From assembly GCA_951406725.2 (NCBI GenBank), contig OX597831.1, forward strand, positions 8,122,001 to 8,186,000: a stretch of 64,000 nucleotides of DNA, in the 5' to 3' direction. This document shows, in pieces, positions 4,565 through 60,763 of the stretch. Under the pieces are notes generated by a model. The model searched no databases and was not told the DNA's origin. It saw only the letters and a program-made list of their open reading frames with translations. The translations under genes and the position numbers were made by a program. The number at the start of each line of letters is the position of its first letter. Positions within the stretch are counted from its first letter, which is position 1. Source of the stretch: Octopus vulgaris (Eukaryota).

Positions 4565-5620
4565 TTGCCTTTGCACAGCTTCTAACGCTGGAGATGTACT
4601 ACAGTACCAGCTGTTCACTACCAGTGAACTAAGGTAACACCTCTTATTTTTCGAGCTCCTTCCAGAGTATTTGAGCGGTTCCAAGCAGTGCTGTTTTCTA
4701 CAAGTGCTCCACCCTTATTGCAGGCCCTATTTGTTCCATGTACTTCTCAAGACTTTTACTCACCGTTCCTAGGGCTCTAGCAATTATTGGTACTACTATC
4801 TTTTTCATCAACCACAACTGCTTAACTTCCCAAGCTAACCTGTCATATCTCTTGACTTTTCTTTCTTCCTTATCGCATACCTTGTTGTCAGCTGGGTATG
4901 CTATATCTATGATCCAGCGTAGTTTGTTTTCTTTCTCAATTAAGATTATGCCCAACTTCCTATTTTCAATCTCATGGTTGCACTGAATCATAAAATCCCA
5001 TAGGATTTCTATTTTCGACAATGCCTTCATGTTTGTGGTCGTACCAAATTTTTGCTCTGTCAAGTCCATACTTGTTGCAAAGTATCCAATGGACAAGCCT
5101 GGCTATATTGTCGTGGCATCTCTTATATTCCTTCTGGGCTAGTGGCATACATTGGCTGGTAATATGCCATACGGTTTCATTGTTTTTTCCGCAGATTCTG
5201 CACTTATCACTTTCCGTTGTGTTGTCTATTCTGTATTTTATGTAGTTTGTTCTTAGTGCTTGCTCCATTTCCGGTTTTAAATCCACAGCCATCTTTTTTC
5301 TCTGTCTGTCTTATCTTCAACATCCCTATGAAATTGACCATACATTCTTTACCCACCTATTTTCAGTTTCATTCGTTTTCAATTGCTTGTATAGTGCTCT
5401 ATCTCTGCAATCTTTCATCCTACACAAGCCTGACCTTCTTCTAATAATAGCAGTTCTGTGGCATTTTTTACATACCATGCTTTGTTGTTTTCTTCTGCTC
5501 TAATGCTGTGTTCACATCCAATAAGTCCTCTTCCCCCTCTTTTTCTTGGTACATACAGTCTGTCTGTGCAACTTCCTTGTCTTTCTGTCTAAGCTGTTTA
5601 ATTCGTCTACTGTCCATGCG
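4561..5620 (-). mobile_element. 5'-truncated, frameshifted R4/Dong-clade non-LTR retrotransposon (RT C-terminal region, CCHC zinc knuckle, restriction-like endonuclease, 3' UTR)
   Basis: Minus-strand frames give WTVDELNSLDRKTRKL, TDRLYVPRKRGGRGLIGCE, CRICGKNNETVWHITSQC (CCHC), RCHDNIARLVHW, ILWDFMIQCNHEIENRKLGIILI...IIDIAYP..KEERKVKRYDRLAWE (RLE, with PD mutated to LG) and KTALLGTAQIL. Flanked on both sides by (TAA)n, the known Dong target. Confidence 0.9.
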
Positions 5621-23574: not shown

Positions 23575-25651
23575 CCTTGTTTTGACATCACCTGTTGGCT
23601 GTAAACGAGCATCCCCGTCATACTAGCAAGTTTGTTCTTCATTTCAAGTCTTCCATGAGAACATGTCTGGCCATGAGAAAATATTATCTTGCTTGGAAAC
23701 AGGTGAGGGTTAGCGACAGGAAGGGCATCGAGCCACAGAAACCCTGCCTCTACTAATTCTGTCTGACTCGTGCAACTGCGTTGAAAAGGTGACATTAAAA
23801 CGGATGATGATGTTCCTTGATCTGCCTTCCTCACAATTATCTTCTACTATTCATATTATACTTAGTCATGTTGTTGTTGTTGTTGTTTAACTCTGACCAA
23901 ACCAGCCTATGATAAAAGACATTCTGTTTGTGATTTGGGCCAAAGTGTCTGGGCAGGGAATACTGTTCTTGCATCTGTCACCGATTTCCTTTAAAGAATC
24001 ATTGGTGCTGCTCTTCCCTTTTTAACTAATTCATAAAATTATGAATTTCAATAATTACCATTCTGGTTTTTTTCTTTCCTTTTTTTTTTCCAGTAAGATG
24101 TTATGGTGTATTGTGATGGTGTATGGCCTTGTGGTTAGGTCGTTTGATTATAAGATCATGTACTCAATTCCTTGAGCAAGTTACTCTGTTTCATGTTGTG
24201 CCATTCTAGTCAGCTATGATGAGTTGGTGAAGCCTCCCCTCTCTCTCTCTCTCTCCCCTTGATCCTCCTTCCCCTTTCTCCCTATCGCACCTGCCTCTCC
24301 CCACACTCTCTTCCCTCCACTTTCCCCTCTTCTCTCTCTCCACTTGTCACTTCCTGGCTGTTCTGCTGAGCCAAAAAGGAGTTTATGTCTGCTCAACACT
24401 ACGCAGCCATTTAAAACAATTAGCAAAAGGATGGTATTTGGTTATGTCCCTTCATGTTCTGAGCTCCAATCCCACTGAAGTTATATCTTTGCCTTATGTC
24501 TTTTGGGGATCAATGAAGTAGGTACCAGTTATATAATGTGGAAGATATAATTGATTACGATTCTAAAGGGAATACCTCAACAGATCCACATTGCAGTTTG
24601 TGTCACCGGTTGAAAAAGAATAAAAAAAACTTTAAGAAGACTTCCTGCCTGAAGAACATCTGCTCCAAGATCCTGGACCAATGTTCACATTTGCTCAGCC
24701 TTTGATTCTCTCCATGATGATGATGATGATCATCATCATCGTTTAGCGTCCGCTTTCCATGCTAGCATGGGTTGGACGGTTCTACTGGGGTCTGTGAAGC
24801 CAGAAGGCTTCATCACGATGACAAAAAGAATGGTGAGAAGATATTATTTGTGAAGTTGTTGAGTTGTTTATAGTTTTGAAGTTAACTTCCTCATCTCAGA
24901 TGACAGGAATAAAATCTAGAATGTGTAAACTAATTACGAGGAAACGGTAAACATCTTGAGCGACGGTCGGCTTCAAACGGTTCAAATATCACCTTACACA
25001 TCCACACACGCACACACAAAGTAGAGAAGCATTTGAATTTACCAAAAGAAAAAAAAAGAAAAAAGTAAAGAACTTGATATGTTAAGTAGAGTGTCGAGAA
25101 TGTTTATTTTTGAAGTTGAGAAACTTCAACGGAGTCAAGTTTCTGAAGGAATTGAGCTTTGCATTTCTTCTTCTCAAAACAAAGTCTGTATATTTTAGGG
25201 GTTTTATTTATGCAATCAGAACATTCTAAAGAATTTACCTAAGGTCATCATCATATCATCATTTTTTTTTTTTTACTTTGTTTTAATCATTGGACTGAGC
25301 CCATGCTGGGGCACCACATTGAAGGGTTTTAGTTGAACATATCAACCCCAGAATAAATTTATTTTTCAAGTCTGGTATTTATTCTGTTGATCTCTTTTAT
25401 CCAATCCACCAAATTAGCGGGTGGGGGAATAAACCAACACAGGTTATCAAGTTGTTATGGCAATGGTCAGCCCAGAGTTTATGGTAAAAGACACTTGCCC
25501 ATGAGTGGAGACTGAACCTACAACCACATGGTTGCAAAACAAGCTTCTTAACCACTGTCTGTGTGCACATAGGTATGCATATATAGTTGTGTTCCTCAGT
25601 GGGTGTGTGTCTCTGTCTGTCTCTCTCTCTATACACACACACACACACATG

Positions 25652-25686
<35 letters not shown>

Positions 25687-26677
25687 GTGTATATACATGT
25701 GTATGTGTGTGTGTGTATGTAGACAGATAGACAAACTGCCAGACAGAATGTAAGTCAATATGTTTTTGCAAAATCCATTCTCCTGACAAAGTATGGATGG
25801 CCTGTTTAATCCAGAATGGTGTCATATTAAAGACTAATTAAGAATGCCGAATAGAAATGTGAAATAAGTTTCCTTGTCAGTTCTGTGTTCAATAAAATGG
25901 GACAGTGTATTTATTTGATGACAAATAATATGGCGCCAATAAATGGTTTTTACTTTGTTGAAATACTTCATACGTCACATCTGCAATATTTTCATAAGAT
26001 TCCAGAGAAGAAAGAAATAAAGAATTCGTACTTAGTCTTCTGAGTTGAGTTAAAGGAAGTCCTGGAGGAAATTAGCAGACATTATTACTAGCTGTATGAC
26101 AAAAGCGAATCAAAAGAATTAGTCTTTAACAGCATGAAAGCCTCAACAACAACAACAATAATAATTAGATATATTAAACATGCCCCAGTGTGGTCACAGC
26201 CTGCAGGCTGAAACTAGTAAAAGAATAAAAGAAGAATACTGTGATAAGATAGAAAACAACCATTCATTTACAGAATAAATAAATAGATAAAACGATTGCA
26301 AAAACTGGAAATATTGTGAATAAGAGAGGAATGTTTTAAAGAGTCTTCCTCTCACTGTTGCTGGTAATAATATCTTAACACTTACTATTTCTCACCTGTT
26401 GTGGGAGATGAAGTTTACCAGTGTTTCAACAAAACTATTGTTTACAATTTCTGAAAAGAACCAGAGTGTTATTAAGAATGACAATTCCGGGAGATTGTGG
26501 AGTCTATGAACTTTATCTTTAGAGATGGTGATATAATTTTGCGTGGTGGTACCTTGTACAGTTGTCTTCTGTTATAGCCCTGGGATGACCAAAGCCTTAT
26601 GTGTGAAGTTTTTGTTGATGGAAAGTGAAAGAAGACTGTTTTGCATATATATATATACAAAAATATTATTGTATACA

Positions 26678-26786
26678 AGAAAATTATTGTCAGTAACTTT
26701 GAAGCTTCAACTAGTTAAGCCATCATTAGGCTACTGATGATGGCCTAAACTGGCTGAGGCTTCAAAGTTACTGTCATTAATATTCT
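26678..26786. repeat. Imperfect fold-back palindrome with a degenerate hammerhead starting at the apex (Penelope pLTR-like relic)
   Basis: Arms ~26678-26729 and 26734-26786, loop GCTA. Right arm begins CTGATGA-T-GGCC(taaact)GGCT-GAGG-CTTCAAAGTT. Lies between (TA)n tracts. Confidence 0.6.
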
Positions 26787-26888
26787 CATTTTAGAATGGG
26801 GAATTTGTGCTCTACAGAGGTTTGGAGTATACCTATCAGATTAATGTAAGATTGTTTTTATCATAACTGAACATAAAAACAGACATTA

Positions 26889-26920
<32 letters not shown>

Positions 26921-26923
<3 letters not shown>

Positions 26924-27330
26924 AAAACTCTGCTTGTGAAGACCCGTTGAGGCAAGTGACGATCAGAATCGAAATCGATCAATGGAAATCGATCAATGGA
27001 AATTGCAGATGTGTTACCAGTGCCGGTGGCATGTAAGAGAACTTTCCGTTTCGCGACCGTTGCCAGCCTCGCTGGCCCTCGTGCCGGTGGCACATAAAAA
27101 GCACCATCCATTCGTGGCCGTTTGCCAGCTCTGTCTGGCACCAGTGCGGTGGCACGTAAAAGCACCCACTACACTCACGGAGTGGTTGGCGTTAGGAAGG
27201 GCATCCAGCCGTAGAAACACTGCCAGATTTGACTGGGTCTGATGAAGCCGGCTGGCTTCACAGAAGTAGAACCGTCCAACCCATGCTAGCATGGAAAACG
27301 GACGCTAAACGATGATGATGATGATGATGA
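26921..27330 (+). mobile_element. SINE-like family B with internal GTGCCGGTGGCACGTAAAAAGCACC repeats and a (GAT)n tail
   Basis: Contains GGTTGGCGTTAGGAAGGGCATCCAGC and ends CATGGAAAACGGACGCTAAAC(GAT)n. Reverse copies at ~6797-7104, 10115-10392, 12595-12875, 20698-20985, 49438-49720, 50660-50882 and 52580-52782. Confidence 0.8.
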
Positions 27331-27349
27331 TATATATATATATATACAC

Positions 27350-27884
27350 ATTCATAAATGAGGGTGAAAAATTAGATATTAATTTAATAATACCGTCAGT
27401 TTAACACCAAGTGGCCTAGCACATAGAAACCAGGGAGACAGTACAAATTTATACATAAATATAAGAGAGTTAACGTTAAGTGGCTAACTCTAGTGCTAGA
27501 AATAGCTCCTTATTCTGGTATAGCCACCGAAGTTGTTTCCACAGAAGAAATAACATTACCTTCAACGTAAGGGAAGCGAAATACAACGAAAAGATAGATT
27601 AATACTGAACAATTGTTTCTTTATCAACATAATATGCAATTATACTCACATATTTGTCTATAATTCATCAGCAGTATTTGTCCTCGATACAATTTATCAG
27701 ACCCACACGGGCGATAAAGTACTCATGCGGTCTGATCGATTGCATACATAGTTGTGGTTTAGCTTCCCGCCAAAAGCATGCTAAGACTCCGTGGAAACCA
27801 ATACCGCATACAAAATTTGCTGCAGCATACTTATTTTATAAATTCATAAATGAGGGTGAAAAATTAGATATTAATTTAATAATA
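27350..27884 (-). mobile_element. Hammerhead-containing unit with terminal direct repeats (retrozyme-like or Penelope pseudo-LTR-like), 492-bp period
   Basis: Identical 43-bp direct repeats at 27350-27392 and 27842-27884, an internal hammerhead motif on the minus strand, and a (TA)n tract at the left edge. Confidence 0.7.
27601..27678 (-). ncRNA. Type I hammerhead ribozyme motif
   Basis: Minus strand: AAUACUG-CUGAUGA-[long imperfect stem II]-GAA-ACAAUUGU-U-CAGUAUU. 7-bp stem I, intact core, palindromic helix III, GUU triplet. The closing pair of stem II is an A.A mismatch. Confidence 0.75.
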
Positions 27885-29154
27885 AAATTCTTCATAAAAT
27901 ACATGATTATGTCAACCTTAGTGCTGAGCTGGTACTTATTTTATCAAACCTGCCAAAAGGATTCTGTTAATGTTCAAATTTGAACTCAGAACGTGAAGAC
28001 GTATGAAATGCTAACAACTCCACCAGCTTGCCACCTTCGTAATAATAACAACAATAATGATTTCAAATTTTGGCACAAGGCCAGCAATTTCGGGGGAAGA
28101 GGGGTAAGTCGATTACATTGACCCCAGTGCTTGACTGGTACTTATTTCATTAACCCTGAATGGATGAAAAGCAAAGTCGACCATGGCAGAATTTGTACTC
28201 AGAATGTAAAGACAGATGAAATGCATTATTATTATCATCATTATTATTATTATTTGCTTGGCATGCAAATAATAATGATAATAATAATCCTTTCTATTAT
28301 AGGCACAAGGCCTGAAATTTAGGGGAGAGGGATAGTTAATTACATCGACCCCAGTGTCTCACTGGTACTTAATTTATTGACCCTGAAAGGATGAAAGGCA
28401 AAGTCAACTTTGGCAGAATTTGAACTCAGAATGTAAAAACAGATGAAATGCATTATTATTATCATTATTATTACTATCTGCTTGGCATGCAGATAATAAT
28501 AATAATAATAATAATTATAATAATAAGAATTTTAAATAGGTTTTCTTTTGCAGTTTTAGTACAAAAATATAAAAAAAATTTTATGACTGTTAAATAAGTT
28601 CTTCCATCTTAAGACTATGAAAATTTTTTGTGTTTAATCTATCAAACCAACCCATCACCACAAAACATGATTAGCATCATCATCATCATCATCATCGTCA
28701 TCATTGTCACCACCACCACCACCTCCACGCTGCATCTCTCTTGTTGATTGTAAACTAAGACTCTCTTCTATTTAAGAAAAGTTTCTCTGCAAAAAGTGTT
28801 TTTTATTTTCTGAAATATTTTTTTTGGGCTTTTTTTTTTTTTCGTTATTGCAAATGCTTCGTCTTTTTTTTCTTTTTGTGCCCCTCACTCTTCATTAGCG
28901 GTTGCCCAAATACTGGAATGGCATTTGCACCGATTAAACTTCTGAATGGTGTGTGTTTTCTTCGTTCTGGAACTAAGGAATGTTTCATAACTGTACTTAG
29001 CACACTTCCACAACTGACATGACATTTTCAAAAATGGTATCATGAATTTCCAAGTTTTTGTTGCTGTTCTTTACTTAGATTTTGATTACTTCAAGAAACT
29101 GCCAGATGACTTTTCTAAATCATGCATGTTTTATTCTTTCAAATTAATTCAATT

Positions 29155-29255
29155 ACATACATACATAGATACACACATACACACACACATACATACATAC
29201 ATAGATACGTACGTGGACACACACACACATACATACATACATACATACATACATG

Positions 29256-29296
<41 letters not shown>

Positions 29297-29386
29297 GTGT
29301 GTGTGTGTATATATATATATATGTATATTGGTAGATATATATATATATATGAGTAGATATATATATATGTATATGTATGTATATGA

Positions 29387-29436
<50 letters not shown>

Positions 29437-29545
29437 ATAATGTATATGAGTATATATATATATGTGTGTGTGTGTGTATAATGTATATGAGTATATATAT
29501 ATGTGTGGTGTGTGTATAATGTATATGTATATATGTATATATATA

Positions 29546-29641
<96 letters not shown>

Positions 29642-29660
29642 TATGTATGTGTGCGTGTAT
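29155..29660. repeat. Compound (CA/TA/TG/TACA)n microsatellite with a higher-order GTGTATAATGTATATG unit (3 copies)
   Basis: Seen directly. Confidence 0.9.
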
Positions 29661-30175
29661 GAGGAAAAGGTGATTTGGTAACACGTACGCACTTGATGTA
29701 AGATGTTGCTATATAATAAAATGTCTAGGCATCTTAAGAAATCTTGTGTTATGAAAATTGAATAAGCTTTTTGAAATATTTGGTAAGAAAGAACAAAACA
29801 AAAAGGAAAAAAAAAGTCACATGATTGATTATTCACACAAAAAGTAAAATCTTTGAAATATCATCATCATCATCATCGTTGTAGTCTTCTTTTTCTCCTT
29901 CTTTCTAATCCCACCACCACCACCACCACCACCACTACTCTTATCATTATTATTATTATTTTCAAAAGTGTGTGTTTAGTTCTAATGTCTATTTTATAAA
30001 TAAATGTATATAAAACAGACTTGGCCAGTTAGTTTTGAATTGGTATATAAATAAATAAATAAATAAATAATTCTTCTTCTCTTTTCTCTGCAACTAAAAC
30101 AAAACCAGAAAAAAAAAAAAAAACCGGACTCCCCCATCCCTGTCTCCATATTCCTATCCAGTTACATCTCTAATG

Positions 30176-30871
30176 TTAACCCTTTTTGTTACCCTATTTC
30201 TGCTGAAATACATTGCCTTTATTTCTATTAATATTGAAAATAAAACAGAATTTAGAAAAATGATTTTGTCATTATAGGCACAGGAGTGGCTGGGTGGTAA
30301 GTAGTCTGCTTACCAATCGCATGGTTCCGGGTTCAGTCCAAATGTATGGCACCTTGGGCAAGTGTCTTCTACTATAGCCTCAGGCCAACCAAAGCCTTGT
30401 GAATGGATTTAGTAGACGGAAACCAAAAGAAGCCCTTCGTATGTGTGTGTATATATATATATATATATATGCATGCATGTATGTATGTATGTGTGTGTGT
30501 GTGTATATGTATGTGTGTATATGTTTGTGCGTGTGTGTTTGTCCCCAACACCCAACATCGCTTGACAACCAATGCTGGTGTGTTTATGTCCCTGTAACTT
30601 AGTGGTTCGGCAAAAGAGATGGATAAAATAAGTACTAGGCTTACAAAGGATAAGTCCTGGGGTCGATTTGCTCGATTAAAGGTGGTGCTCCAACATGGCC
30701 ACAGTCAAATGGCTGAAACGAAAGAATAAGAATTATGAAGCTTATGTGTTCGAAACGTAATTTTACACAAAATGCAATGGAGAGTGTTGATTTGGTTTAC
30801 TTTAAAAATAGGAGATTTGTGTCATTGAAATCAGGGATGATCTCAGGTGTCTTTAGTGTCAGGAGGGTTAA
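30176..30871. mobile_element. Older family-1-related TTAA MITE interrupted by a SINE
   Basis: TTAACCCTTTTTGTTAC start and GGAGGGTTAA end. A SINE is inserted at 30277-30730 with an ATTAT duplication. Other eroded copies at ~1500-1763 and ~14559-14732. Confidence 0.6.
30277..30730 (+). mobile_element. SINE family A, full length
   Basis: Colinear with 56801-57200. Confidence 0.85.
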
Positions 30872-31277
30872 ATTAGCATTTTATTTGTTTAGGTACAAAA
30901 AGGAAAAAAAAAAAAAAAAAAAAAAGACATGGCATCTGTTTCTCAGAGCATGACTTTATATCACAAATGCTTGAAATGTGTTCCTGCAAAAAACAAAAAA
31001 AAAAATGTATTGAATTTACCAAGTTGGAAATATCAGGCTAGTTGGCATTTAAGTATGTGATAGATTGTCATTGAAGAGAAGCTTTTGTTTCTTATCTCCT
31101 TCATGCAGTGACAACTGGAAATCAATTCTACTATTTCTGAAAGACACAAAAGAGTAAAAGAGTTTACCTATTTGAAATAGATAAATAAATATATATTATC
31201 AACTGTTATATTATACATTATATGTATGTGTATATATATATATATATATAAACTTTATATATATATATATATATATA

Positions 31278-31448
31278 TATCTATACAATATGTTACATTA
31301 CTCGGTAGTCAAGATAAAACTCTGAGTTTCAGATGCCGAAGTGGAAATCCACAACAACCGAAGAGATGGTGTTGTGGATTTCCACTTCGGCATCTGAAAC
31401 TCAGAGTTTTATCTTGACTACCGAGTAATGTAACATATTGTATAGATA
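31278..31448. repeat. Perfect 79-bp-arm inverted repeat with a hammerhead-like motif beginning in the loop
   Basis: 31278-31356 is the exact reverse complement of 31370-31448, with 13-nt loop ACCGAAGAGATGG. Reads CCGAAGA-GATG...CATC-T-GAAACTCAGAGTT. (TA)n on both sides. Confidence 0.85.
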
Positions 31449-31510
31449 AATTTCCTCTATTTACATAATATTGAGGTCTCTTTCTTTCTTTTGTTATCTT
31501 ACCGTTTTAT

Positions 31511-31549
<39 letters not shown>

Positions 31550-31778
31550 CAACTGTTTTAAACAGCTGTAAAAGAAAAAGATAAATTAATAAAAGACTTT
31601 TGCCATCTGGCAAAGTAATTTTTTGTAGGGGGTGGGGCCAGTACTGTAAACATATGTTAAAAAAAAAAATTTTTTTTTACAAAACGGTTAAAGAATATCT
31701 AATCGAATACTGGACATATATTCAAGTAAACAATAGGGTTTTTTTTGTTTTTTATTATCTGGCAGAGTCTGTCTCACC

Positions 31779-31956
31779 CAAGGGTCTCCAAATTTTTAGA
31801 CCATCGACCCGTTCATGGAATCCTTGACCCCCCTCATCGCCCCCCCCCCCCACCTCCCAGGCATGTACAAGGGAATAGATAAATAATAATAATAATTAAG
31901 TAGATGTGCATTTATCAACCCCCAGGGGTCAGTATCAACCACTTTGGAGACCCCTG
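31779..31956. mobile_element. hAT (Charlie-like) MITE
   Basis: TIRs CAAGGGTCTCCAAA and TTTGGAGACCCCTG. 8-bp flanks GTCTCACC and ATCTAACC (6/8 match). Confidence 0.65.
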
Positions 31957-31979
31957 ATCTAACCAAACACTGGACATAG

Positions 31980-32447
31980 CATCATCATCATTATCATTGC
32001 TTTTAACATCCACTTTTCTGTACTTGCATGGGTCGGACAGTGGTTATTGAGGCAGATTTTCTATGGCTGTGTGCCCTTCCTGTTGCCAACCCTCACCTGT
32101 TTTCTAACAAGGTAACACTTCCCAATGGCCAGACATGTTTTCTTCACAGAATATTGGAAATGGATGACACTGCTTGTATGACAGTGACACTCATTTACAT
32201 CTACCACAGTATGTCAAGAGAAAGAGATATGCAAACACACACACACATTCATGCACATAGCTGTCTGTCTATATAGATACATATGTCTATGATGGGCTTC
32301 TTTCAGTTTCCATCTGCCAAATCCACTCACAAGGCATTCATTGCCGTGGTTCTATAATAGACACTAACCCAAAGTGCCATACGATAGGACTTAATCTGAA
32401 ACTCCATGCTTGCAATGTGAAGTTCTTAACCACACAGCCATGCCTGT
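31980..32447 (-). mobile_element. SINE family D (family A head plus AGGAAGGGCA block and (GAT)n tail)
   Basis: Head shared with family A; 3' part related to family B. Similar copies at ~397-815 (-), 14845-15192 (-), 23380-23812 (+) and 47340-47813 (-). Confidence 0.7.
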
Positions 32448-40953: not shown

Positions 40954-40957
<4 letters not shown>

Positions 40958-41050
40958 AATTGAGTCCAGTAGAGTTGGAATCAAGTAAGTAACTCCCTCT
41001 GTGTGTGTGTATAAGATATATATATATATATATATGTATATATATGTTTT

Positions 41051-41110
<60 letters not shown>

Positions 41111-41223
41111 ATGTATGTATGTATGTATAAAACATATATATACATATATATATATCTTATACACACACACACACACAGAGGGAGTTACTTACTTGATTCC
41201 AACTCTACTGGACTCAATTCACA
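40954..41223. repeat. ~270-bp palindrome centred on (TA)n (inverted duplication of flanking sequence)
   Basis: Unique sequence 40954-41000 is the exact reverse complement of 41177-41223. The inner microsatellite blocks are also mirrored. Confidence 0.9.
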
Positions 41224-57200: not shown

Positions 57201-57552
57201 TATCCCTGCACGAGTAGCTCATGTTCCATAGTTCATCTCCATCTCTGTAAGGCTTATTGCTCCTCTTCTCTTCTAATTGTGTAAAAAGCACCTTGTGTAT
57301 ATTAGCTTTTGGATGACATAATCCAAATGTGGTTGGTGTTGTTGTTGTTGTTTCTGTCTCCCTTTTTCCCCCTCAAATCCCATTAATCTTCAACTTTCTC
57401 ACACTGAAACTGTTATGCCACTGCAGCAACATCCAGAAAGTTGACAGCTTCAACCGTATTTTTAGCATTCGTTTCACTCTGGAATCATTTCAAGCTTCCA
57501 CTTTATTCTTTGGGGGATTTTTTTTAATTTCCTTTTGATATGTTGTAGCTGT

Positions 57553-57843
57553 TTCTTCTTCTTCTTCTTCTTCTTCTTCTTCTTCTTCTTCTTCTTCTTC
57601 TTCTTCTTCTTCTTCTTCTTCTTCTTCTTCTTCTTCTTCTTCTTCTTCTTCTTCTTCTTCTTCTTCTTCTTCTTCTTCTTCTTCTTCTTCTTCTTCTTCT
57701 TCTTCTTCTTCTTCTTCTTCTTCTTCTTCTTCTTCTTCTTCTTCTCCTTCTTCTCCTTCTTTCTTCTTCTTCTTCTTCTCTTTTCTTCTTCTTCTTCTTC
57801 TTCTTCTTCTTCTTCTTCTTCTTCTTCTTCTTCTTCTTCTTCT
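57553..57843. repeat. Long (TTC/GAA)n tract
   Basis: About 64 uninterrupted TTC units (57553-57745) plus an interrupted extension. Confidence 0.95.
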
Positions 57844-60763
57844 AAATCCCCCTCCTCCCCCTCCCCCTCCTCCTCCTCCAGGTGAATGACTGCACCTGTA
57901 CCTCTGACTTTTGTCTACAGTAGCAGTTGCAGTGGAGGTCTGCAGTGCTTACCTTGTTACAGACTGGGGCTCGGAACATCAGCTGGAAAAAAAAAAAAAA
58001 GACAGAGATTGATTCTGTTATCTCACAAATTGTTAGAACCATTTGACCTGCTAGAAATAACAGCCAACTCTCATTCAAATCACACCCTACTATTTCAATT
58101 AAATTCTTTTTTTTAATTATGAAGATATATGAAAATAACTTTGTCCTTATTTAAGTTGATCTTTCCTTTATGTTCTGAGTTCAAATTTCGCAGAGGTTGA
58201 CTTTGCCTTTCATCCTTTCAGGGTCGATAAATTAAGTACCAGTTACGTTTGTCTGTCCTTGTTTGTCCTCTCTGTGTTTAGCCCCTTGTGGGTAGTAAAG
58301 AAATAGGTATGAGATAGTGCAGGATTAGTTCGAAACAATGTGAATAAATAAGCATTAAATTTGGTAGAATAATCAGATTAATAAATGGTGAAAATATCAG
58401 GCCAACACATTAGGCAATGTCCAATGTTCACGGTGTTTATAACTGGAATGTATTTGACCACAGGCCTGCTGGGTGATCAGGGCTGACCTGGGCTTGGACA
58501 ACAACTTATCTGTTTGCTCTTTTCCTTCCACTGTTTTTACTTATGGTATTCTTCCTCTTTCCTTGGAATGAGACAGTTGGGTGTGGCTGTTTGGACGTGG
58601 ATGATTTGGCATGGCTGGCTGGCTGGACATTCAGCCTGGTATTTTTTGGCGCTGGAGGCAACAAGATTGACATAAACACTTTCTCTCTCTTCATTCAGAG
58701 AATACTGACACAGAAAGAGAGAGAGGGAGGGAAAGAGATAGTGGGAGGGACAGAGAGAAAGAGAAAGAGAGAGTGAGGGAGAGCATGGACATAGTTCAAT
58801 GACTGAAACATGTAAAAGATAAAAGGGTGAATCGGTCCTTTTGTACCTTCTTCTTTCTTGCAGTTCTCTTGTTGTCACTAAGTGTCTAAGGCATCACCAT
58901 CTTATCTGAAGTTCGGTGAATTTGGCTTCTTGCTACCCTCTTGCGTCATTGAGAAGTCTTCTGGTGGTTTCTTTCTTCTGTAAAAGACTTCAGCATTTGT
59001 TATCTATCTGTATTTGGTAAATCTTCATTATTTGTCTAAACAATCGCATCTGTGTAGCATTGATAAGGTTTTTGCACTCATTTGTTGCTGTTCCAACTCA
59101 CACCACAGCAGCAGCTGCCGTGTGTGTGTGTGTGTAATGCTATCTCTTTTACTTACTGGCTTGGTTTTGCCTCATTAGAAAGTGCTTCTGGTATATCTTT
59201 AAATCTCCAATTTCTCTGGCAGTGTTAAAGCTATACGGTTTCTATAGATTGGTTAAATTCTTTCCCAACTCTAATTCCCAGCCATCATTACGCTTTACAG
59301 CTCTCTGCAGTAAGCAGCATCACTCGCTTATTTTGGCTTTCACAACATTCATAGCAACTTCCTGGAGAGTCAAAGTCTGAATTGTAATGGTGACAATGTC
59401 TCTGCTCTATTCTGCTTTGAAACTGAACTGTTTTGTGCCTTATTTAGCATTTTATCCCAGAAATGTTGTAACCCCCCAACTGAACAAACTTATGATCCAA
59501 GGCCAAGCCTTCCAACCTTGATCATTCTGTCTTCTTTTTTCATTGCTTCGTATACCAGGGACTACATTATCCAATGTCTTCTATTCCTAGAAGTGTGTGA
59601 TTTAAGGGTGTATTGGTTGCTATTTCTAGCAGGCTGACATAGCTTACACAGAGGCTCGATTACCTCAATGCTCTTAGCTGCATTTATACCACACTTTATC
59701 CAGTGTTGTGTTCATTTCATGCTCCATTGAGTTATATATATTAGCTTTCCATGAGATCTTACTAATAAACTGTGATAGATTAAACATTTCTTTTGTTTCC
59801 TGCAACCACCAGTGAGCCTTTGACCTCCCACCACTGAACTATTGACCTCTCACCACTGAACTACTGCCCCCTCTCAATCTCAAACATCTCTGCAACATAT
59901 TTCTTTTACCAAACTGTGTAAGCATCCTTGCACTTATCTCAGTAATATTCCTTAATTCTCAGAACATTGATCTTTGCCTGATATTCCAAATAATATCAGC
60001 CAGAAACTCTTTCTTCTCTTTCTTTAGAGATCATTCTTCTTCTTCTTCTTCTCATTTCCTCCTCATTTCGTATCAATTTGTCCCGTTTTCCTGCAAAGGC
60101 AAACAACTGCAGAAATCAACAGGTCAATGACTGCAATTATTTTATTATCATTTGACTGGTTTCATTCTTTAGAACGTGACCATGCTGTGGCACTGCCTTC
60201 AACGATTTTAATCAATAGATATATATTACATGTCATCTTCAGCTGGAAAATATTTCAACATGATTAACTCACTATATTTCTGAGATTATTTATTGATGTT
60301 GCCATTAGAATTTTCCACTCAACCACTTGTATTTTTAGAGATGTAACACTTTTTTCCTTTTTCTGTGAGTATAGGTGCAAGCGTGGTGGTGTGGTAAGAA
60401 CTTTGTTTCCCAACCACATGGTTCTTGGTTCAGTCCCACTGTGTGGAACCTTGGGCAAGAGTCTTCTACTATAGCATTCGGCCAAACAATTTAGTAGATG
60501 GAAACAGAAAGAAACCTGTTGTCTATATATATGTGTGTGTGTTTCTTTTTGAGTATCTTTGTGCCTGTGTTGGTGTGTTTACATCCCCATAACACACATG
60601 CACACAAATATATGAGCTGATTTAATATCTTTCATCTTCCCTTTGTGTATCTCTTCTAATTTACAAAATGCACTCTAAGGCTTTTGTAATACTGTTGTAT
60701 TATGACAGCATAGGTGTAGTACATGTCAATCTCATAGCAGCTTACTTGAAAACATTGTCCTAC

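Follow-up and report, generated by a model that had tools for sequence, protein, structure and literature searches.

The 64,000-nucleotide stretch of Octopus vulgaris DNA analysed here (the window) carries at positions 27350–27884 an insertion made up of one 492-bp non-coding unit and a 43-bp partial second unit, 1.09 units in all. Its sense strand is probably the minus strand, judging from the direct repeat, a strand-biased fold and a family depth that is highest at the 27350 end. As the original prediction had stated, the unit is terminally redundant with identical 43-bp repeats: 27350–27392 matches 27842–27884 exactly, at a spacing of 492 bp. Ungapped extension lengthens the repeat to 48 bp with 2 mismatches (96%), both in the 5 bases adjoining the 43 bp. 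Read on the minus strand, 27842–27884 is a partial upstream unit (5' redundancy), and the unit ends on its 3' side with the 43 bp at 27350–27392, where a hairpin is predicted (27375–27394) and family coverage is among the deepest. Adjoining the element's inferred 3' end is a (GAT)n(AT)n tract (27311–27349), the likely insertion target; other copies also abut (TA)n. No second copy of the unit was found elsewhere in the window, and no Pfam domain in the two frames scanned over it (27554–27748 and 27633–27980).

The upstream flank (27000–27330, plus strand) is a SINE-like repeat with three 61–62-bp internal repeats and a (GAT)n tail. Downstream, 27905–28520 (plus strand) holds three tandem copies of a very abundant 210–230-bp SINE-like repeat, the first of which lacks its 5' part. 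Both flanking repeats are presumably octopus SINEs. Farther away, 31275–31451 is a near-perfect inverted repeat with arms of ~85 bp, lying between (TA)n tracts and extended by 60 bp on one side; its layout resembles that of a Penelope-like retroelement (PLE) truncated at the 5' end and accompanied by an inverted copy, and the 3' half of a minimal hammerhead may lie within it. A ~65-bp inverted repeat of unique sequence surrounds a long (TA)n/(CA)n centre at 40954–41223 and adjoins a (TA)n tract. The window also contains a disrupted C-terminal portion of a non-LTR retrotransposon ORF (4701–5310, minus strand; zinc knuckle and restriction-like endonuclease region), with 54–68% identity to proteins in a protein search (17 matches, several with RT domains), and a long pure (GAA)n/(GAG)n run at 57466–57948 that yields homopolymeric open frames.

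On the minus strand, 27601–27678 matches the core consensus of a type I hammerhead (C3 U4 G5 A6 N G8 A9, G12 A13 A14, A15.1-U16.1, H17 and three helices; consensus as given in PMC7151607). A 7-bp Watson-Crick stem I pairs 27672–27678 with 27601–27607, the core nucleotides C3–A9 and G12–A14 (27665–27671 and 27617–27619) are intact, U16.1 and U17 are in place, and the predicted cut falls between 27608 and 27607, after GUU. Helix III, with 2 bp and a 4-nt loop, sits inside the palindrome ACAAUUGU (27609–27616). Domain II spans 45 nt (27620–27664) and is predicted to open with an A.A apposition at 10.1/11.1 (27664/27620), followed by 4 bp and then 13 further pairs, without a canonical short stem II. 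Core, stem I, palindrome, 45-nt domain, cut position and A.A closing mismatch were all found where the original prediction had placed them.

This motif is the sole exact-core match on both strands of the 64 kb scanned, and the locus contains a single hammerhead. A strict descriptor (7 Watson-Crick pairs, short helix III) matched none of 200 dinucleotide shuffles of the window, and a loose one (at least 5 pairs) matched 43 of 200. No Rfam family reached its gathering score over the unit, and none of the 88 Rfam matches up to E 10 in 24000–32000 overlaps 27350–27884. Another CUGAUGA...GAAA string, at 27239–27307 (plus strand) inside the upstream SINE-like tail, was rejected as a hammerhead because it has no stem I.

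Judged by its sequence, the motif is an atypical hammerhead that conforms neither to the canonical nor to the minimal type. The cleavage triplet is GUU instead of GUC or GUA; GUU is an allowed NUH site, with GUC and GUA the fastest (PMC3138052). A paired 10.1-11.1, typically G-C, is absent from this copy, and no G-C variant occurs among 40 of the 117 family variant rows. In place of the canonical 6-bp helix I and 4-bp helix II with loop 1–loop 2 contacts, domain II has 45 nt and 17 predicted pairs. The pair probability of the monomeric helix III does not exceed 0.10; two molecules co-fold by pairing the palindrome between them, giving a double hammerhead with a helix of 8 bp predicted between the molecules (duplex energy -6.4 kcal/mol). 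An alternative register with an extra nucleotide after A9, considered as a way to rescue the A.A, cost 3.8 kcal/mol in stability relative to the A.A register and was discarded. A basal mismatch in helix II need not be fatal, since an axolotl monomer with U.U at this position is reported to be 22% cleaved (PMC7229834). Taken together, the hammerhead of this copy is predicted to be weak.

The unit is partly present in 20 of the 24 listed public runs (10 studies, four coded organisms), with at most 0.64 of the sampled words found in any of them. Contigs of four public runs were aligned at a likeness of at least 84%: X1, guessed to be DNA; X8 and X17, guessed to be RNA, none of the listed runs containing the unit being recorded as such, which says nothing about expression; and X10, of unspecified kind. 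The aligned contigs numbered 287 (X1), 192 (X8), 56 (X17) and 823 (X10), counts that include contigs of the SINE-like flank at 27905–27960, and most were less than 95% alike. Other genomic copies, whose absence would have counted against the original prediction, do exist, and the contigs of the four runs reveal a family of diverged copies. Exact-pattern scans of metagenome contigs and of viral contigs gave 0 matches to the unit.

These copies settle the nature of the redundancy. Diverged copies spanning 27841/27842 occur in X8 (record 32, with 17 differences over 27666–27884), X1 (record 7) and X10 (records 15 and 16). Since they cross the head-to-tail junction and join the 43 bp to element sequence on both sides, the 43 bp is element sequence and not a target-site duplication, and the locus consists of one complete unit followed by 43 bp of another. 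The deep X10 record 9 (depth 471.6) runs through 27354–27460 and continues into 58 letters, the displayed part of which aligns to 27819–27842 (0/500 shuffles); a heavily amplified sister subfamily thus shows head-to-tail closure of the unit as well. X1 record 1 (depth 106.6) fits only 27375–27509 and then passes into other letters; read as a deleted homologue, this tail was not significant (129/500 shuffles).

The minus strand of the unit is also the more structured one. The whole 492-nt unit folds with a z-score of -5.9 on the minus strand versus -2.1 on the plus strand, and folded as a circle it has 70% of its bases paired (z -4.8 versus -2.1), in agreement with the original suggestion of a structured minus-strand RNA. 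The predicted minus-strand fold contains a long-range rod, with its 3' arm at 27535–27587 and its 5' arm at 27751–27798 (pair probabilities 0.69–0.99), and a side hairpin with G.U pairs at 27696–27736. As foreseen, this hairpin folds better on the minus strand (-17.1 kcal/mol, z -3.9) than on the plus strand (-13.0 kcal/mol, z -2.6), and family changes at 27709 and 27729 retain its pairing as G.U. A predicted helix at 27442–27453 pairs across the head-to-tail junction. Among background windows of this microsatellite-rich region, 8 of 86 reach the z-score of the element's 300-nt core (-3.8), so the z-score alone is only moderate evidence.

Family variants were compared with the fold in a sample of 40 of 117 rows, chosen by the tool, with subfamilies pooled, the hammerhead register set by hand and contig phase inferred from 30-nt overlaps. 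In this sample, 13 variants are unpaired, 11 are one-sided and preserve pairing, 6 make up three compensated pairs and 10 break a pair (for example 27553/27781, U.G to C.A); if variants were placed at random, as few broken pairs would arise with P = 0.021 and as many compensated cells likewise with P = 0.021. One compensated pair lies in stem I (27675/27604), which is A-U in this copy and G-C in most of the family depth; in X1, C at 27675 (plus strand) takes 58.4 of 65.8 and G at 27604 163.8 of 254.6. Two rod pairs, 27545/27788 (U-A to G-C) and 27535/27798 (C-G to A-U), are compensated in X8 records 27 and 32, which share a 30-nt overlap. The same 40 of 117 rows contain no change in the GUU triplet. 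As sequence comparison, this covariation is supportive, not strong, evidence that would favour selection on the RNA fold.

These data bear on the simplest alternative, that a hammerhead-like string arose by chance in an unrelated insertion flanked by a 43-bp target-site duplication. Such a coincidence could draw on the loose-descriptor matches among shuffles, on the empty Rfam result and on the local windows of similar folding z-score. It would have to account for the strict descriptor failing in every shuffle, for relatives with a compensated stem I change and a restored 10.1-11.1 pair, and for diverged copies in which element sequence lies on both sides of the 43 bp. We regard this explanation as largely refuted already and extremely improbable.

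Depth is strongly uneven along the unit. Summed contig depth, which is not copy number and is read here solely as many copies with an excess at the 27350 end, is 838 (X1) and 6574 (X10) at 27367–27388, 122 and 678 at 27653–27674, and 31–35 and 208–255 at 27719–27828; the outermost flank bin has 5.45 and 5.8. This gradient fits 5' truncation of a minus-strand element, and divergence below the 84% cut-off may contribute. Other copies show loose ends at (TA)n, before 27356 in X8 and before 27837 in X1, and both of the listed joints (n = 2) are strand inversions. No circle-type joint is among the joints listed for the four runs, whose contigs cannot show ends, and no array with two hammerheads is listed in them.

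It is very improbable that the family is a retrozyme of satellite type, residing elsewhere in long tandem arrays from which this copy was moved by recombination and not by reverse transcription. Classical animal retrozymes are indeed described as tandem repeats (PMC7229834), and the very deep collapsed contigs of X1 (106.6) and X10 (471.6), one of them crossing the junction, would suit arrays. Arrays would give flat depth, however, and the observed depth varies ~27-fold along the unit, with several contigs ending in (TA)n at the same end.

The 3'-heavy depth and the inversions also agree with a reading in which an autonomous PLE left its pseudo-LTR or 3' end behind as a solitary fragment, the present unit, which was never mobile as its own 492-nt RNA. 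PLE pseudo-LTRs are described with type I hammerheads that have a long helix II and a palindromic helix III and that occur mostly as single dispersed motifs (PMC4209133), and X1 record 1 does leave the unit after 27509. Against this, several diverged copies close on themselves without an ORF between end and start, and the helix at 27442–27453 is predicted to pair across that very junction. A search for an autonomous RT/GIY-YIG partner in 148 of the 187 longer frames of the window returned no match; the only hits were a sub-threshold zf-RVT (the LINE remnant) and a sub-threshold EthD. We consider the solo-fragment origin unlikely.

The family falls into subfamilies that differ at the hammerhead. 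U at 27664, which would give U10.1-A11.1, accounts for 71 of 101.7 depth in X1 and 434.2 of 587.3 in X10, for 14 of 47.9 in X8 and for 0 of 34.5 in X17. Over 27605–27695, X8 record 30 does not differ from this copy, so the A.A is probably a subfamily trait and not a private lesion, as far as sequence can tell, and the repair of the closing pair proposed originally would test such a trait. Another X8 contig differs from this copy by one gap over 27503–27603. Among near-identical contigs, the most amplified ones come from a sister subfamily ~10% from this copy.

A further subfamily lies ~7–8% from this copy over 27477–27884 (X8 records 27 and 32, X17 records 19 and 21, X1 record 3). X8 records 27 and 30 end at 27695, and record 32 starts 30 nt earlier; record 27 would differ from this copy at 27665, core A9. 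This subfamily is rare in X1 and X10 and prominent in both guessed-RNA runs, which come from two coded organisms, and it may be a transcribed member: its letter at 27535 takes 17.5 of 57.4 and 32 of 38.5 depth in those runs, versus 4.69 of 259.1 and 0 of 800.6 in the other two.

For the copy in the window, the original prediction had gone further, calling it young and the strongest candidate for a member that is functional or was recently active. Neither description was supported. The absence of differences within 43 bp bounds pairwise divergence only at 6.7%, and 2 of the 5 adjoining bases differ. With a single cleavage site in 1.09 units, the locus cannot release a 492-nt monomer or circle, and any circle must therefore derive from loci elsewhere that have at least two units. 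In X1 and X10, the better-paired U10.1-A11.1 and the stem I G-C are carried by most of the depth. That this copy is nonetheless a young working source, cutting itself and yielding a 492-nt circle, seems quite improbable. Its identical 43-bp repeats, its intact core, the cleavage reported for the axolotl U.U monomer (PMC7229834) and the X8 contigs with identity over 27605–27695 and a one-gap difference over 27503–27603 are what one would expect of such a source. They are outweighed in our view by the lone cut site, the weakness of a 43-bp identity as a clock, the ceiling of 0.64 on sampled words in every run and the better-paired variant in most DNA depth. The sections available of a 2026 survey also define active retrozymes by two or more hammerhead units, a form that 1.09 units do not reach, and report 8 of 9 tested dimers as uncleaved (bioRxiv 10.64898/2026.07.22.740005). 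This copy is likely a dead end; the single locus is probably inert, and the family is the object worth study.

We therefore favour, as the probable explanation, that the locus is a one-and-a-bit-unit copy of a dispersed 492-bp non-coding hammerhead family, likely copied by a PLE, with this copy likely a dead end. A source locus with at least two units would be read through on the minus strand, and the RNA would fold into a long rod presenting the hammerhead. Its cleavage would be weak, probably relying on dimers joined by the palindromic helix III or on protein help, and the resulting monomers could be closed into circles by a host ligase; ligation to circles is reported for coral, mussel and axolotl retrozymes. 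A PLE protein (reverse transcriptase plus endonuclease) would then nick a (TA)n tract and start copying, at a fixed point near 27345–27350, an RNA that is circular or multimeric. Copying would usually stop early and leave 5'-truncated copies; at this locus it would have gone 43 nt beyond one full unit. Because neither end of this copy falls at the cut site, the template would not have been a simple linear cleaved monomer: it would be either a circle, traversed slightly more than once, or a linear multimer that had not been cut and on which copying began internally.

The marks on which the PLE step rests are the 43-bp redundancy, the depth gradient (confounded by divergence), the 2 strand-inversion joints and the (TA)n loose ends. 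PLEs are described as leaving partial tandems, 5' truncations and inverted 5' copies with a (TA)n bias (PMC8557442), and the excerpted account of an anole PLE gives an internal start in vitro and a hammerhead that is protein-assisted and dispensable for insertion in vitro (PMC11167929). For retrozymes, unit lengths of 51–972 bp, solo monomers and a PLE origin are stated in the same 2026 survey (bioRxiv 10.64898/2026.07.22.740005).

Among known systems, the unit most resembles the metazoan non-LTR retrozymes as described in PMC7229834 and bioRxiv 10.64898/2026.07.22.740005. It is a short non-coding unit of low GC content, arranged head to tail, that carries a single type I hammerhead and lacks an LTR-type layout; helix III is short with a palindromic loop, and the predicted monomer is highly self-paired, as is expected of such retrozymes, with the hammerhead free to fold. 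Its 492 bp fall within the range of the 2026 survey, in which solo monomers are a described derivative. Unlike those retrozymes, it stands here as 1.09 units and exceeds the 170–400-nt circles described for invertebrates. Where they have a 4-bp helix II with loop-loop contacts and G10.1-C11.1, it has a 45-nt domain II, a GUU site and U-A or A.A, and its ribozyme is a prediction from sequence.

With the PLEs (PMC4209133; PMC8557442; PMC11167929) it shares a more-than-unit partial tandem, apparent 5' truncation, inverted joints and an AT-rich or (TA)n target; with their pseudo-LTR hammerheads it shares the long helix II, the palindromic helix III and a predicted function as a dimer (PMC4209133). 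It differs from PLEs as described there in having neither an RT or GIY-YIG ORF nor G10.1-C11.1, and from their minimal hammerheads in its 7-bp helix I, compared with 4–5 bp, and in the extra nucleotide after A9, which is unfavourable here by 3.8 kcal/mol. Viroid-like hammerhead circular RNAs have in common with it a rod-rich fold, a length of a few hundred nucleotides and a hammerhead; in contrast to them, its ribozyme occurs on one polarity only, its copies in genomic DNA are many and no viral or metagenome contig matched it.

The octopus elements Naiad_Ovul and Naiad_Obim likewise prefer (TA)n for insertion (PMC8557442), and Naiad_Ovul was considered as a parent, the portion of that paper at hand flagging it with a hammerhead half-core 35–50 nt from the other half. 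The lead was promising, but the sequence and the order of the boxes do not match: the Naiad 3' ends have GAAA first and CUGAUGA downstream of it, and here the two boxes follow each other the other way round. Four motifs of the unit gave 0 matches in the published set of Naiad, Chlamys and Hydra sequences (PMC8557442), and no likeness to the Naiad consensus 3' ends was apparent by eye; as far as these comparisons reach, Naiad is not the parent.

On sequence grounds we would class the locus neither as an active retrozyme, because it has one hammerhead and not two, nor as a canonical type I hammerhead, because its 10.1-11.1 pair and helix II geometry differ. By analogy, the family would work like a non-LTR retrozyme bearing the insertion marks of a PLE.

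Hammerhead-bearing repeats are common in animals, and the class is known. In the literature on hammerheads in octopus or cephalopods we found no such element reported; supplementary species lists or repeat libraries may already include one. A 2026 repeat annotation of Octopus vulgaris lists 31 recently active Penelope-like families, and the available text and supplement mention neither hammerhead nor ribozyme (PMC13282606). What this family adds is an invertebrate case of a retrozyme-like unit that bears insertion marks of PLE type, the link between PLEs and retrozymes having been tested only in frogs according to the available part of the 2026 survey (bioRxiv 10.64898/2026.07.22.740005). Its hammerhead departs from the canonical and minimal types and yet has a compensated change. 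A bolder reading, which we hold to be possible and on balance doubtful, is that the family is a miniature Penelope parasite in octopus-type genomes: a 492-nt rod-shaped circular RNA whose weak hammerhead works only as a dimer or with a partner protein, which would keep the circle closed, and of which one low-copy subfamily would be the expressed form in two species. If that were so, the family would offer a compact natural substrate for deciding whether the reverse transcriptase of PLEs copies circular templates or starts internally on linear multimers.
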